Origin: Deltaproteobacteria bacterium
GTDB lineage: Bacteria; Myxococcota_A; Polyangia; Polyangiales; Houyiibacteriaceae
DNA length: 64,000 bases
NCBI GenBank assembly: GCA_034670305.1
Contig: JAXMNT010000021.1
Span: 1 to 64,000, forward strand
Direction of reading: 5' to 3'
The notes below the pieces were generated by a model, which was not told the origin of the DNA, did no database searches, and was given only the letters and a program-made list of their open reading frames with translations. The position numbers and the translations under genes were made by a program. Below are positions 8,118 through 24,594 of this stretch, in pieces; position 1 is the stretch's first letter; every line of letters starts with the position of its first letter.

Positions 8118-8190
8118 GGGTCCGGGAGCTGGAGTCGAACCAGCGCCATCGCGGTACCAGCCGCGAGTTCTTCCACTGAACTACCCCGGA
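8117..8190 (-). tRNA. Atypical tRNA-like RNA, 6-nt anticodon loop (CTGGTA), C73, encoded CCA
   Basis: TCCGGGG TA GTTC AGTGGAA GAAC T CGCGG CTGGTA CCGCG ATGGC GCTGG TTCGACT CCAGC TCCCGGA C CCA; all four stems pair. Confidence 0.85.
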
Positions 8191-8260: not shown

Positions 8261-8334
8261 TGGGTCCGAGAGCAGGAATCGAACCTGCGCCGACACGGTA
8301 AACAGCCGTGCGTTCTCCACTGAACTACCTCGGA
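8261..8334 (-). tRNA. Atypical tRNA-Asn(GTT)-like RNA with T37 and C73, encoded CCA
   Basis: TCCGAGG TA GTTC AGTGGA GAAC G CACGG CTGTTTA CCGTG TCGGC GCAGG TTCGATT CCTGC TCTCGGA C CCA. Confidence 0.85.
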
Positions 8335-19820: not shown

Positions 19821-20639
19821 TCAGCAGCCGATTTCGTCGGTGGAGCCGTCGCAGTCGTCGTCCATGCCGTTGCAGGACTCCGGCGTCGGAGAGATCGAAC
19901 ACGGGGAGAACGCGCCGCCAACGCACATCGTGGTGCCGGCCGCGCAGACGCCAGGCTGTTCGCAGCCACGGCTCTCTCCGTCCGTGCACTCGCAGCCTTC
20001 GTCGACGGCGCCGTCGCAGTCTTCGTCGGTGCCGCCGTCGCACCGCTCGAGGCTCGACGGGTTCACGCTGGGCAACGCGTCGTCGCAGTCCGTCATGTTC
20101 TCGACGTAGCCGTCCGGTCGTGTGCACGCCGCCAGCGCGTCGGCCGCGTCGCCGAAGCCGTCGGAGTCGCTGTCGCGGTAGTAGGTGAACGAAACGCCTT
20201 CGTCGATTCGTTCGTCGCAGTCGTTGTCCACCGCGTCGCACGCTTCGCTGAGCAGGGGCGAGCGAAGCGGATCCATGTCGTCGCAGTCCGCACCCCCACA
20301 CGTCATCGAGATCGCGCTGTCGCCGTCTTGGTCCCCGCGCAGGTCACACTCGGTCGGACACCGGCCGAGGTCTTCGCTGCACTCGTCTTCGCCGCAGTCG
20401 AGGGGCGTGCCCTCCATGCATCCGATCTCGTCAGCGCCGAGGCCTGGCTCGCAGACTTCGGTGCCGTTGCAGGCCACTCCGTCGTCGCAGTCGAGGTCGC
20501 GGGTACAGCGTGCGGGCCCGGCGTCCCGGGTGCCGACGTCGCGGAAGCGCGGGGCGTCGGCGCCGGCGTCCACCATGAACGCGTCGTCGTCTCCGCACCC
20601 GAAGCACACGAAAGAGAGGAGGAGCATCCAGCGGGTCAT
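19821..20639 (-). CDS. Lipoprotein with repeated putative metal-binding (DCDD..E.CDG.DNDCDG) motifs
   Basis: Lipobox CFGC; three to four repeats; ATGA coupling. Confidence 0.85.
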   Translation of the reverse strand: MTRWMLLLSFVCFGCGDDDAFMVDAGADAPRFRDVGTRDAGPARCTRDLDCDDGVACNGTEVCEPGLGADEIGCMEGTPLDCGEDECSEDLGRCPTECDLRGDQDGDSAISMTCGGADCDDMDPLRSPLLSEACDAVDNDCDERIDEGVSFTYYRDSDSDGFGDAADALAACTRPDGYVENMTDCDDALPSVNPSSLERCDGGTDEDCDGAVDEGCECTDGESRGCEQPGVCAAGTTMCVGGAFSPCSISPTPESCNGMDDDCDGSTDEIGC

Positions 20640-21217
20640 GCGATCTCCTGGATGGTGGCGACGGTGTCGCGAAGCTCCTCGAGCAACGGATGCGACCAGT
20701 TGTGGCCGAGCGCTTCGACGACTTGCGCGTAGTACCAGAGCGACCCTTCTTTGCCGGCGGTGAAACGCGACCAGAGATCCGCGCCGACCGCGCCACGCAG
20801 GTCGCGCACGATCGATCGTGCGTTGTGGAGTTTGTCCGCGGCGCTGACGAGCTTGAGATCGTGCGGCTCGTCGCGCAGGTGTTGTAGGTACGCGACCTTG
20901 CGCGCCTTCCACGGAGGCTTCGGCAGCTCGGTCGAATCGCTCAGCGCCTCCACCATCGTCCGCACGCGGACCCCGAAGCGGGCTTCGAGATCGTCCGCGT
21001 CCGCACCTTCGATGTCCTCGAGGTAGTCGTGCAGGACCGCGGCGATCATCTGGTCCTCGTCTCCGCCATGTTCGCCGACGGTCACCATCACCTGGAGCAG
21101 GTGGGTCAGGTACGGCACGCCCGAACCCTTCCGGATGTGGGTGCGGAACGCGTCCGCGGCCAGCGCGAGGGCTTCGTCGAGTTTCGGGGTGTAGCGGTCG
21201 GAATCGGTGGCAGGCAC
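20636..21217 (-). CDS. Stand-alone RelA/SpoT-type HD hydrolase (small alarmone hydrolase/Mesh1-like)
   Basis: RKGSGVPYLTH, AAVLHDYLED, ADKLHNARS. Confidence 0.88.
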   Translation of the reverse strand: MPATDSDRYTPKLDEALALAADAFRTHIRKGSGVPYLTHLLQVMVTVGEHGGDEDQMIAAVLHDYLEDIEGADADDLEARFGVRVRTMVEALSDSTELPKPPWKARKVAYLQHLRDEPHDLKLVSAADKLHNARSIVRDLRGAVGADLWSRFTAGKEGSLWYYAQVVEALGHNWSHPLLEELRDTVATIQEIA

Positions 21218-21424
21218 CCGCGCAAACTAGCCCAAATCGCGGCTCTGTGACCTCGAAGCGACGCGCCGGCTGGCGGTGGCACGAACGAACGAACGTTCTC
21301 ACCCGCGACAACTGTGTCGTGGTCGACCCGAAGAGGGTCTCACCGTTGCCGCAGTTTCTTGCCCAAATGGGACCCAAGGATGCAGAACGGAGATGGTTCG
21401 AACATTGCACAGTTGAGGGGCACG

Positions 21425-21781
21425 ATGGCCAGAGCAAGACGACGGTTGAGGGGAGAGCGGGTCACCACGGGTGATCGCGTCGGCGTCCTCAAGCGGCGTG
21501 CGGCCCGGCTCTCGCGGCGCGGCGACTCCCGCAAGGCCCTCGTTGCGCTGCGGCAGATGGTCGCGCTCGGTGGTCAGGCCCGTCATTGGGTCCAACTCGG
21601 CGATGCCCTCCGGCGTGCGCGGAAACACCCGGAGGCGCTTCATGCGCTCAAACAGGGGCTGTTCCTCCATGAGCGGGAAGGCAACCCGGCCCGGGCCGCG
21701 ACGGTCGCCCGGCTGATTTTGGCGGTGGATCCATGCTGTTCCGCCGCCTCGAAGTGTCTCGATCGGGCAGCGAGAAACTGA
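21425..21781 (+). CDS. Small basic TPR-like protein
   Basis: HWVQLGDALRRARKHPEALHALKQG TPR-like helices; GAGGGG SD. Confidence 0.65.
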   Translation: MARARRRLRGERVTTGDRVGVLKRRAARLSRRGDSRKALVALRQMVALGGQARHWVQLGDALRRARKHPEALHALKQGLFLHEREGNPARAATVARLILAVDPCCSAASKCLDRAARN

Positions 21782-21833
21782 CGTGAACGCCTCAACCCAC
21801 GGTCCAAGGGTGGTGCTGGGCACCGAGCGGACC

Positions 21834-21839
21834 TATGAT
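21834..21839 (+). promoter_or_regulatory. Putative -10 element (TATGAT)
   Basis: Near-consensus -10 box directly ahead of the structured region. Confidence 0.45.
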
Positions 21840-21846
21840 GATGCTC

Positions 21847-22217
21847 ATGACGGTTCCACCGTCTTTGAGTCGGCAAGGGGGTTGGGCTTCGGCCCCGCAT
21901 TGGTGCGAAATCCCGGTGAGCTTCGTTGCTCCCGAGAGCGCCGGTTCCTCCGGGAACCCCTTTGTCCAAATGGGGGCGTCAATTCTGGCGTCCTCCGACC
22001 ACGAAAGCCCTGTCAGGGTCTGGCCACGTGCCAGAGACCCGAGGGCCACCGGCCTTAGCCGGGGGAGGCAAAGCCCAATGGACTGTACCTATTTGTTCGA
22101 GCTCTCGATGGGGGTCCAGGCGTCCTAACGCGCCTTCCCGGCAACTCTCATAGGGTTGTCTGACCCCTACGGAGGTCGACGAAAGAGGCGATGGCCCGGT
22201 GGCTGTCGCCTCTTTTT
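21847..22217 (+). ncRNA. Candidate large structured ncRNA (unassigned)
   Basis: Nested stems with G-U pairs, C(UUCG)G and C(UACG)G tetraloops on + strand, -10 box upstream, terminator downstream. Confidence 0.6.
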
Positions 22218-22220
22218 ATT
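22182..22220 (+). terminator. Rho-independent terminator
   Basis: AAAGAGGCGATGGCC-CGGT-GGCTGTCGCCTCTTT followed by TTATT. Confidence 0.85.
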
Positions 22221-22257
22221 CCGTCGCCCCCGCGCAAAGACAGGCGAGGTGCCTGGG

Positions 22258-22325
22258 GTGCGAGATGCCCTCGGTAGAAGAGTTCGAGCCCCGCAAAGAC
22301 CGGTGTGCGAGATGCCCTCGGTAGA
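22258..22325. repeat. Two 21-bp direct repeats GTGCGAGATGCCCTCGGTAGA
   Basis: Copies at 22258-22278 and 22305-22325. Confidence 0.9.
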
Positions 22326-22450
22326 GCGAGCCTGAAACCGGATGATTGGTCGGACCAATGCGGCGCCTGTATCACCTTCGATGGTGGACGAAGCGTGCGC
22401 AAATTCCAGCCAGCCCCCGAACCGGGTAGAAAACCAACTAGGGTTGCAGC

Positions 22451-23356
22451 GTGCGCATTCTCTTCTGTGGAACCGGTTGGCCCGAGATCGTGCCTTTCAT
22501 TCAGCGGCGTCTCGGCGAGGGCCACGAGGTCCTGCTGCGCGACATGAGCCGTCCGCTCGTCGAACAGGTCGCGGACGTCGACGTCCTGTTGCCCTCGAAC
22601 GGGCACGTCACCGCCGAGGTCGTCGCGGCGGCTTCCAAGCTCCGGCTGATCCAGCAGCCGGCCGCCGGGTTCGAAGGCATCGACCTCGAGGCGGCGCGAG
22701 AGAGGGACGTTCCGGTGTGCAACGCGCCGGCGAAGAATGCGAACGCCGTCGCCGAAGCCGCCCTGCTCCTGATGCTGATGATCGCCCGCCGGGTGCCCGA
22801 AGCGCGGCGGGCATTCGCCGCCCGCGAACTCGGTCGACCGGTCGGGCGCGAACTGCGCGGTCGCCGGCTCGGCATCGTCGGCTTCGGCCAGACCGGGCGC
22901 GCGCTGGAACGGAGCGCGCAGGCACTCGGCCTCGAAGTCCGTGGCGTGGGGTCGCGGGGCGGCCGGCCAGGGTTGCTCCAGCTGCTCGGCTGGGCAGACA
23001 TCGTCAGCCTTCACCTGCCGCTGACCGCGGAGACGCGGGGGCTCATGGACGCCGAGGCCTTCGCGGCGATGCGGGAAGGATCCTGGTTCATCAACTGCGC
23101 GCGCGGAGGCATCGTGGACGCGAAGGCGCTCTCCGAGGCGCTGGCCGGTGGGCGGCTCGACGGGGTCGGACTCGACGTGCACGCGGTGGAACCGGCGGAT
23201 CCGACCGACCCGATCTACGCCGACGATCGGGTGGTGGCGCTGCCGCACGTCGCCGGGTCGAGCGAGCCTGCCTTCGTCGCGATCGCGGAGGTCGTCGGCG
23301 CCAACATCGAGCGGCTCGCCGCGGGCGAGTCGTTGCTGCACCGGGTGGACCGCTAG
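22451..23356 (+). CDS. D-isomer-specific 2-hydroxyacid dehydrogenase
   Basis: GIVGFGQTG, SLHLPLT, INCARGG, GLDV and PHVAG motifs. Confidence 0.93.
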   Translation: MRILFCGTGWPEIVPFIQRRLGEGHEVLLRDMSRPLVEQVADVDVLLPSNGHVTAEVVAAASKLRLIQQPAAGFEGIDLEAARERDVPVCNAPAKNANAVAEAALLLMLMIARRVPEARRAFAARELGRPVGRELRGRRLGIVGFGQTGRALERSAQALGLEVRGVGSRGGRPGLLQLLGWADIVSLHLPLTAETRGLMDAEAFAAMREGSWFINCARGGIVDAKALSEALAGGRLDGVGLDVHAVEPADPTDPIYADDRVVALPHVAGSSEPAFVAIAEVVGANIERLAAGESLLHRVDR

Positions 23357-23496
23357 GTTCGACCACGGTTCGACCACGGGCCTCTTCGCCGAAAACGGTC
23401 CACACTGCATGTCGGTGCGGTGGGAGTCGCACCCCTCTTGTGTTCAGCGCGGCCCCCGAACGGCGCGCTTTCGATTCCTTGGTGGGAGACTTTGCG

Positions 23497-24594
23497 ATGA
23501 CGAAACGAATGGCTTGGGTGTGTGGCCTGGCGATGGCGATGGCCTGCAGTGGCAAGGACGGTCCGCCCGATGAGATGGACGCCGGCGGCACCGACACCGG
23601 CAGCCGTGTGGACACCGGTACGACCGAAGACGGCGGTCCGGCCGACGACGTCGGCACCATCGAAGACTCGGGTACGACCGAAGACGGCGGCACCGCGGAC
23701 GCGGACACGACCGCGGACACCGGCGGTGCGGATGCGAACCCTGGCTGCACGACGGAAGCCGGCTGCGACGAAGCGGACTACTGCGCATGGGGCGGAAGCT
23801 GCGGCGCCGGCGAACCCGGCATGTGCCGCGAGCGACCCGAAGTCTGCACCGCGGACTGTCCAGGCGTGTGCGGCTGCGACGGCAGCTTCTACTGCAACGC
23901 GTGTGTGGCTGCGCGCAACGGCGTGGACGTCGACGACGAAGGCTCCTGCACCGAGCCGGGCCCCTGCGACGCGCAGGACATCGAGGTGACCGGCGCGTGC
24001 GAACGCTTCTTTGGCTGGTCGTGGAACGGCCGCGACTGCCGCGGCAACAGCGGCTGCGAGTGCACGGGCACCGACTGCGACTCGTTCTTCGAGTCCGAAG
24101 ACGCCTGCCTTGCCGTGTACGGCCGATGTGGATCGACCGGCGGAACCTGTGGCGGTATCACGGGCGCGATCTGCCGCCCGTCGGAATGGTGCGACTACGA
24201 GATGTGTGGCGTGGCCGACGGCATCGGCACCTGCCGCCCGCGTCCGGAAGCCTGCCTCGACGTCTACGATCCGGTCTGTGGCTGCGACGGCCGCACCTAC
24301 AGCAACGACTGCTACGCGCACAGCGCGGGCGCGGACGTCGCATCCGACGGCGAGTGCGCCGCGGTCGATGGCGACTGCGGCGGGCGGGCCTGCACCGACC
24401 GCGAGTTCTGCGACTACGACGTGGACCTCGCCTGCAGTGGCGACGGAGTCTGCACGGCGCGACCGGAAGTCTGTCCGTTCGTGTTCGCACCGGTCTGCGG
24501 GTGCGACGGACGCACGTACGACAACGACTGCTTCGCGAACTCGAGCGGCTTCGACTACGCCGCCCGTGGCGCCTGCGGCCCGCCCGACGCCTGA
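23497..24594 (+). CDS. Kazal-like domain Cys-rich lipoprotein
   Basis: Lipobox AMAC; three PEvC..y.PVCGCDGxTYxNxC repeats. Confidence 0.88.
   Translation: MTKRMAWVCGLAMAMACSGKDGPPDEMDAGGTDTGSRVDTGTTEDGGPADDVGTIEDSGTTEDGGTADADTTADTGGADANPGCTTEAGCDEADYCAWGGSCGAGEPGMCRERPEVCTADCPGVCGCDGSFYCNACVAARNGVDVDDEGSCTEPGPCDAQDIEVTGACERFFGWSWNGRDCRGNSGCECTGTDCDSFFESEDACLAVYGRCGSTGGTCGGITGAICRPSEWCDYEMCGVADGIGTCRPRPEACLDVYDPVCGCDGRTYSNDCYAHSAGADVASDGECAAVDGDCGGRACTDREFCDYDVDLACSGDGVCTARPEVCPFVFAPVCGCDGRTYDNDCFANSSGFDYAARGACGPPDA

Follow-up and report, generated by a model that had tools for sequence, protein, structure and literature searches.

A probable new family of large structured RNAs with a conserved short reading frame in the Polyangiales

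The 64,000-nucleotide (nt) stretch of contig JAXMNT010000021.1 analysed here (the window), from a deltaproteobacterial genome of the order Polyangiales of the Myxococcota, carries at 21834-22220 a locus that is very probably an independent gene, a member of a new family of 350-400-nt RNAs of that order. The family has an established fold, an order-wide spread in single copy, its own transcription signals and a conserved, very short open reading frame (mini-ORF). The fuller statement, that this is a new Polyangiales RNA gene with a 5' domain controlling whether the mini-ORF is translated, is tentative and falls somewhat short of probable.

Fold and spread of the RNA

The + strand of 21834-22220 folds with -190.1 kcal/mol, compared with -158.4 +/- 6.2 kcal/mol for 100 dinucleotide-preserving shuffles, none of which was as good (z -5.10). 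The z value of the - strand of the same stretch is -3.31. A consensus structure of 97 pairs was obtained with RNAalifold from 65 homologues (alignment A2), each pair less than 96% identical and aligned blind to the reading frame. The proposed pairing leaves 91.0% of cells paired, a figure favoured by the structure having been drawn from the same alignment, versus 43-48% when the 3' partners are slid by 1-3 columns. The same control lowers the pairs changed on both sides from 59 to 35-45, the compensatory cells from 315 to 99-116 and the covariation score from 0.246 to 0.07-0.10; the observed values were reached by none of 500 shuffles. The homologues are kin and not independent, so that these and later counts overstate the number of events. 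In a second alignment (A4) of 99 cores, aligned to a covariance model and hence fitted to it, the paired share of cells is 95%, and compensatory changes are seen at 30 of the 38 pairs. By this comparison of sequences most helices are backed by covariation. Many pairs of A2 switch between G-U and G-C, which fits the + strand only. The initial annotation had deduced that strand from G-U pairs and UNCG loops; the strand is borne out by the alternation. The UUCG loop is specific to the window's lineage.

The RNA is organised around a 5' domain of about 220 nt with two junctions, one formed by helices P2, P2a, P2b and P2c and the other by P4/P5 and P6, with P3 between them (Table 1). The domain holds many invariant unpaired bases. 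P4 and P5 together are 96% paired in A2, and compensatory variants of P6 occur in the distant members L201, L203 and L217, as seen by eye and in the covariance-model alignment. The second half of the mini-ORF is buried in P7, of which it forms the 5' strand. Two further pairings considered by eye, one between joining strand and P7 (3' strand), the other between P6 and terminator, did not hold across clades and were not used. The region 5' of the domain fails to align from one clade to another. Within the large clade, some homologues have there, in the 5' hairpin region, one or two extra copies of a segment of about 22 nt (A2 columns 45-90; for example L103, L071, L085, L068, L095 and L062), which indicates that the 5' end of the RNA grows by local duplication.

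All the sequence elements listed in the initial annotation were found where it had placed them. Comparison with homologues backs its 12-bp stem GGCAAGGGGGTT/AACCCCTTTGTC (P2) with the three hairpins enclosed, its hairpin GGGGGCGTCA/TGGCGTCCTC (P3), the pairings GGGTC..GACCC and AGGCG/CGCCT, and the strong terminator. Its long-range stem AGCCCTGT/ATAGGGTT has to be given up: GCCCT pairs locally with AGGGC, with compensatory changes, to form P4, and the 3' arm ATAGGGTT sits in an insertion missing from most homologues (A2 columns 501-519). The nucleotides assigned to a GACC/GGTC hairpin are the 3' strand of P7, and the TGGAC..GTCCA pairing is not conserved.

Sequence search and covariance model both find the locus once in its own genome. 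With BLAST, 17 of 60 relatives yielded matches, all of them short pieces, so profile and covariance searches were needed; a profile search of the BLAST loci yielded collinear matches over about 300 nt. An exact-pattern scan with one genome per species returned 32 stretches, 29 of them homologues. The records were titled Myxococcota, Polyangiales, Myxococcales or delta-proteobacterial metagenome-assembled genomes in 28 of the 32 cases, and one homologue comes from a contig assigned to a Coxiellaceae bin. Another pattern, independent of the first, gave 76 metagenome stretches, every one a homologue (nhmmer E <=2e-23).

The distribution was surveyed with a covariance model (R1) of the 169-position core only, not of the full-length RNA, under Infernal's stricter filters and in sampled genomes, a negative meaning that the RNA was not found in the genomes searched. 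R1 matched 79 of 88 genomes of the family to which the window belongs (58 of the 62 of good quality), with one match each except in one genome with two. The order gave 74 of 151 genomes, the sample of the class outside the order 0 of 132 and that of the phylum outside the order 1 of 126. Some families inside the order are nearly always positive (11/15, 9/10 and 15/22), others negative (0/9, 0/23 and 1/23). The sole match outside the order, in another class, has the promoter hexamers, the core, the Shine-Dalgarno (SD) sequence, a 12-codon frame and the terminator. Genomes G082 and G184 have two R1 matches each, on different contigs, which may stem from true duplication or mixed bins. Two partial matches of 35-37 bits (L223 and L224) lack the core when inspected by eye and were dropped as probably false.

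The comparison with Rfam that the initial annotation had proposed was made with Rfam 15 and gave no family match. At the gathering threshold the whole window contains two transfer RNA (tRNA) genes and nothing at the RNA locus. With E values up to 10, the interval 21700-22460 has five matches of 10-15.4 bits, the cut-offs being 38-80 bits; with E up to 5, 13 homologous loci have four unrelated matches, none of them shared by two loci. ARAGORN found 0 genes over 21000-23000. The locus matches neither bacterial class A RNase P RNA (RF00010) nor, with ARAGORN or Rfam, transfer-messenger RNA (tmRNA, RF00023), nor 6S RNA (RF00013) or signal recognition particle (SRP) RNA (RF00169). Copies of these four RNAs lie elsewhere in the genome: canonical RNase P RNA on contig C4 (275.6 bits), canonical tmRNA on C38 (169.9 bits), 6S RNA on C96 (56.7 bits) and SRP RNA on C37 (69.7 bits). 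The earlier statement that signatures of these four RNAs are missing is supported. The cobalamin riboswitch (RF00174) was considered only for a likeness of a few short motifs; it gave no match at E up to 10 nor in the 13 loci, and the covariation of the CGCA/TGCG helix, where the similar motif lies, is that of a simple hairpin.

A diverged member of a known family, be it RNase P, tmRNA, 6S, SRP RNA, the cobalamin or another riboswitch, is suggested by a size like that of RNase P RNA or tmRNA and by the few motifs reminiscent of cobalamin riboswitches, and is hardly credible when no Rfam 15 score comes near a gathering cut-off and the canonical RNAs are on other contigs. That the locus is an ordinary protein gene can practically be dismissed. 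Two ORFs, one of 97 codons (21835-22128) and one at 21783-22058, are indeed open in the window. Neither is conserved, the first has no Pfam match, base pairs change in a compensatory manner and homologues have indels of all lengths: the distance from P2b to the start of the mini-ORF takes 25 different values, falling into modulo-three classes of 23, 17 and 12. Full-text literature searches outside the subscription journals turned up no such RNA for Myxococcota.

Transcription signals and the mini-ORF

The 5' end of the predicted RNA was inferred from its -10 box and the 3' end from the U-run of the terminator. In 31 of 33 homologues a hexamer of the TATGAT/TATGCT/TATCTT/TATAGA type occupies the corresponding site, the two misses being sequences extracted too short. 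Aligned homologues of the large clade have a TTGGCG-type hexamer, 17 nt and a TATCTT-type hexamer, and the window's relatives TGGTGC, 17 nt, then TATGAT or TATGCT. A consensus promoter scan of 21200-22700 called 0 sites. The TATGAT box of the initial annotation is therefore upheld by comparison with homologues but not by the scan, and the evidence for the promoter is comparative only. The view that the locus is a stand-alone multi-domain structured RNA rather than a leader holds as well: 14 loci of the large clade, the largest, have a convergent ABA4-like gene downstream of the RNA, which is thus not a leader there.

Contigs from two metatranscriptome assemblies of different studies cover 21863-22099 and 21859-22129 of the RNA at 95-96% identity, with 9 and 12 differences from the window. 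Their substitutions inside P3 (21976, 21977/21990, 21979, 21993 and 21994) all keep the pairs. Two DNA assemblies also span the RNA region. The flanking genes are uncovered in both RNA libraries, which counts as no evidence. As contigs give presence but not strand, ends or level, and DNA can occur in RNA libraries, they lend weak support to expression of the RNA.

Directly after P6 stands the SD-like sequence GGGGGAGG, followed nine bases further by the ATG of the mini-ORF at 22078; the frame ends with a TAA stop at 22126-22128. The arrangement was followed in 74 sequences, the 65 of A2 and 9 from other families. All 74 have GGAG, 8-12 nt, a start codon, a frame of 14-23 codons and a stop. The start is ATG in 71 and GTG in 3; the stop is TAG in 53, TGA in 11 and TAA in 10, never TGG, and stays a stop through 13 inferred changes. 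In A2 the start occupies one alignment column in 64 of 65 sequences, as does the stop, and the two are separated by 45, 48, 51 or 54 nt, start to stop; distant members have lengths of 69 and 72 nt. A further 41 loci, from other families plus one other class, have the same arrangement in 38 cases with 12-24 codons (31 recognised by pattern, 7 by eye); one has a 41-codon frame and two weak partial matches were judged false.

Conservation of the overlapping ORF had been named beforehand as evidence against an RNA. What is conserved is the mini-ORF, the last 16 codons of ORF 21835-22128, whose start, stop and frame are kept in 74/74 sequences; the rest of the 97-codon ORF is not. The label 'non-coding RNA' (ncRNA) of the initial annotation is accordingly right as to a structured RNA but misses this frame, and the RNA is probably not purely non-coding. 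The pattern suggests that the reading frame is kept and the peptide only loosely, as with regulatory leader frames.

A second frame, mostly of 20-23 codons (MCIWTAILESDSHRRFGRVSP and similar), is present in the large clade only. It is read in a different frame and begins 2 nt past the GGAG core, a spacing too short for a normal start. A type I toxin mRNA was also considered and rejected, the predicted peptides of 12-24 residues being mostly polar, for instance MDSNSRIGLSPEVRAS, and not of the hydrophobic membrane type.

The locus and its neighbours

The genes around the RNA differ between lineages. In the window the order is a HD_4 protein gene (- strand), a TPR-like protein gene (+), the RNA and a 2-hydroxyacid dehydrogenase gene (+), which follows the RNA by 230 nt on the same strand. 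The Pfam scan took in four window frames, those of the HD_4, TPR-like and dehydrogenase proteins and ORF 21835-22128, and gave matches for the first three only. The large clade has a phospholipase D-type synthase (-), a Crp-like regulator, a class II cyclic AMP (cAMP) phosphodiesterase, the RNA, an ABA4-like protein (-) and two unknown proteins of about 600 residues; this order was seen at L050 and 13-18 other loci, and also at L046. The two large proteins are paralogous and have no Pfam match. In one other family the order is Crp-like, phosphodiesterase, TPR-like, RNA. Other families have YceI and YchF beside the RNA and a VWA protein downstream: a YceI-like gene lies divergent next to the RNA, with a YchF GTPase gene beside it, at L172, L177, L178 and L180, and YchF is adjacent also at L006 and L011.

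The TPR-like gene codes for a small, arginine-rich product and ends 53 nt before the -10 box of the RNA. Homologues lie directly upstream of the RNA at L003, L004, L005 and L007 and convergent downstream of it at L011; they were not found at the other loci examined. The protein is possibly a partner of the RNA, or merely shares its gene order.

The spacer between terminator and dehydrogenase gene contains a 24-nt direct repeat (22255-22278 and 22302-22325, 96% identical) and a 15-nt direct repeat (22230-22244 and 22289-22303). A 21-nt repeat core occurs exactly, genome-wide, only in this spacer. In one related DNA assembly 22225-22429 is swapped for 268 other letters. Long overlapping ORFs surround the locus, for example 19821-21437 (-) and 22342-24594 (+), some with cysteine-rich repeats; most of them are probably spurious, a result of the high G+C content.

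Table 1. Features of the RNA locus and other elements placed in the window (MFE, minimum free energy; w/ denotes the pairing strand)
Feature	Position	Strand	Evidence or remark
tRNA genes	8120-8190 and 8264-8334	-	only Rfam matches in the window at gathering threshold
TPR-like protein gene	21314-21781	+	Pfam match
-35-like hexamer TGGTGC	21811-21816	+	read from the sequence; 17 nt upstream of -10
-10 box TATGAT	21834-21839	+	comparative
Predicted RNA, ~373 nt	21846-22218	+	folding z, full-length homologues, RNA-library contigs
5' hairpin GACGG-TTCCA-CCGTC	21849-21863	+	MFE fold; lineage-specific, other clades with different 5' hairpins
Domain 1	21872-21966	+	P2 closes P2a, P2b and P2c; four-way junction
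P2, 12 bp	21872-21883 w/ 21955-21966	+	7/9 pairs compensatory
P2a, GGGC..GCCC	21884-21895	+	homologue comparison
P2b, CGCA-TTGG-TGCG	21896-21907	+	100% paired; one pair CG in 58, GC in 32 sequences
P2c, TCCCGG..CCGGGA arm, variable length	21911-21955	+	homologue comparison
P3, variable hairpin	21972-21995	+	covaries; absent in L060, L116 and L104
Joining strand, CGACCACGAAA here, CCACC..GAACGC in most homologues	21996-22006	+	nearly invariant columns
P4, GCCCT/AGGGC, encloses P5	22007-22011 w/ 22042-22046	+	one pair CG in 42, UA in 41 sequences
P5, conserved AG bulge	22016-22040	+	covariation
P6, CCGGC-loop-GCCGG	22049-22062	+	invariant in 65/65 (A2)
SD-like sequence	22061-22068	+	invariant or nearly invariant columns
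Mini-ORF MDCTYLFELSMGVQAS, 16 codons and stop	22078-22128	+	conserved start, stop and frame
P7, long helix	22098-22116 w/ 22162-22178	+	MFE fold; 8/15 pairs compensatory, e.g. GGACUC/GAGUCC vs CGAGCUC/GAGCUCG
P7a, hairpin inside P7, stop codon in loop	22118-22135	+	MFE fold, covariation
Intrinsic terminator, stem and U-run	22182-22218	+	13 pairs, 11 compensatory, 96% paired; inner part called at 22198-22210 with T-run
2-hydroxyacid dehydrogenase gene	22451-23356	+	Pfam match

Possible mode of action and significance

The RNA might work as a riboswitch-like or leader-like device. Acting in cis, its 5' domain would sense a metabolite, a protein or ribosome state and would set whether ribosomes load beside P6 and translate the mini-ORF. 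Translation would have to open P7, so that ribosome entry and the fold of the RNA would be coupled, and the output would be a micropeptide or a remodelled RNA. Like in riboswitches, a conserved structured domain is found directly upstream of the ribosome-binding site, here that of the mini-ORF. Gating of mini-ORF translation by the 5' domain is, taken alone, a possible mechanism that we would not yet call probable. A more definite form is doubtful, namely a stand-alone gene made of sensor and mini-ORF in which a large new aptamer-like domain reads a signal and sets the translation of 12-24 codons, the output being the peptide or the act of translation. In the boldest version of this sensor reading the signal may be a nucleotide second messenger. 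Signalling genes neighbour the RNA in several places: in the large clade and one other family the Crp-like regulator and the class II cAMP phosphodiesterase, in the window the HD_4 protein, and at one related locus an FHA-GGDEF cyclase, to which a neighbour of the RNA at a second locus is similar in sequence. This association is not universal and, the genomes being rich in signalling genes, may be due to chance.

Several observations weigh against gating. The changes inferred at codon positions 1, 2 and 3 of the mini-ORF number 122, 116 and 120; the absence of a third-position excess indicates a weakly constrained peptide, and the case for coding rests on the SD sequence, start, stop and frame. 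Only the valine codon has a third-position pattern (1/4/17), and much of the apparent conservation of the peptide can come from the pairing of P7. Neither pairing counts nor partition-function folds gave a consistent partner that hides the SD sequence: in folds of 65 RNAs its pairing is 0.33, compared with an RNA mean of 0.32, with no common partner. The pairing of CCACC in the joining strand with GGAGG of the SD sequence is 89% paired, with one-sided changes in 3 of 4 pairs, and shows almost no covariation because the SD sequence is nearly invariant; the two motifs occur together in 52 of 99 sequences and many distant members are unpaired there. No neighbouring gene is universal, and the context differs between families so that no ligand is hinted at.

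Some of these points would be expected of an RNA that acts in trans, by sequestering a protein or as a scaffold or catalyst, with the 5' domain as its working part and the mini-ORF secondary or tuning RNA stability. The high conservation of unpaired junction bases and the single copy, near-universal in several families like a housekeeping RNA, speak for such a function, together with the weakly constrained peptide and the lack of a conserved downstream gene. It leaves unexplained the invariant SD spacing, the ATG or GTG start, the persistent stop and the in-frame length changes, and no partner protein is consistently encoded nearby; we consider it unlikely, though it deserves weight. It is improbable that the RNA is purely non-coding and that SD sequence, start, stop and frame are by-products of structural constraint. 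Open frames are common in G+C-rich DNA, the nucleotides of the ORF double as P7 and codon-position periodicity is absent. Against this stand at least five length classes of the frame, all multiples of three, unlike the rest of the RNA, as well as the three stops that interchange without TGG and the restriction of the start to ATG or GTG.

A leader-peptide attenuator, in which translation of the mini-ORF decides whether the terminator forms and leads to read-through or to antisense to a convergent gene, would account for a short ORF ahead of a helix and an intrinsic terminator, an order that has comparative evidence, and for the same-strand dehydrogenase gene of the window. This is very improbable: the downstream gene varies by lineage and is convergent in the 14 large-clade loci, a conserved antiterminator pairing was not seen (by eye only), and the conserved 220-nt 5' domain is left without a role.

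Leaders with a very short ORF are known, such as the Salmonella mgtA leader with mgtL and the glutamine-II ('Downstream-peptide') riboswitch, which precedes small-protein genes. The RNA described here shares with them a folded 5' domain, a ribosome-binding site and a very short frame whose translation would be coupled to RNA structure; it differs in its much larger domain of about 220 nt, its own terminator, the lack of a relation in Rfam and the absence of a conserved downstream gene. Dual-function RNAs such as Staphylococcus RNAIII/hld, Escherichia coli SgrS/SgrT and Bacillus SR1/SR1P are likewise stand-alone structured RNAs with their own promoter and terminator, and they carry a small translated frame; translation of the frame is a prediction in the present case. 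Here the frame is shorter (12-24 codons), the peptide is weakly constrained and there is no sequence relation. The large orphan bacterial RNAs raiA, OLE, GOLLD, ROOL and HEARO, which we assume to be covered by the Rfam library searched, resemble the RNA in their several hundred nucleotides, covarying helices, invariant junction bases and presence in one lineage. None of their models matched, and the RNA is distinguished by its ribosome-binding site and mini-ORF and by being chromosomal and single-copy. The tmRNA is similar in length (about 360 nt), in its high degree of structure and in an internal short frame with its stop in a structured region, but the frame here has an SD-like site and a start codon, and the canonical tmRNA is on another contig. 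The RNA unites features of the large orphan RNAs with features of leader and dual-function RNAs, in a stand-alone form that was not found described.

To our knowledge, only a few large, intricately folded bacterial RNAs are without an assigned function, and each of them has tended to lead to new biology. The present one is a tractable case: it is single-copy and present in most genomes of several Polyangiales families, complete genomes included, it was seen in metatranscriptome assemblies, and about 180 natural variants can be used for structure work. That the order has kept the reading frame but not the peptide sequence, with an elaborate RNA domain and a ribosome-binding site in front of it, suggests that translation here serves regulation independently of any gene further downstream. 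Should the 5' domain bind a ligand, the RNA would define a new class of riboswitch whose output is unusual; should the peptide be active, few conserved gene products of bacteria would be shorter.

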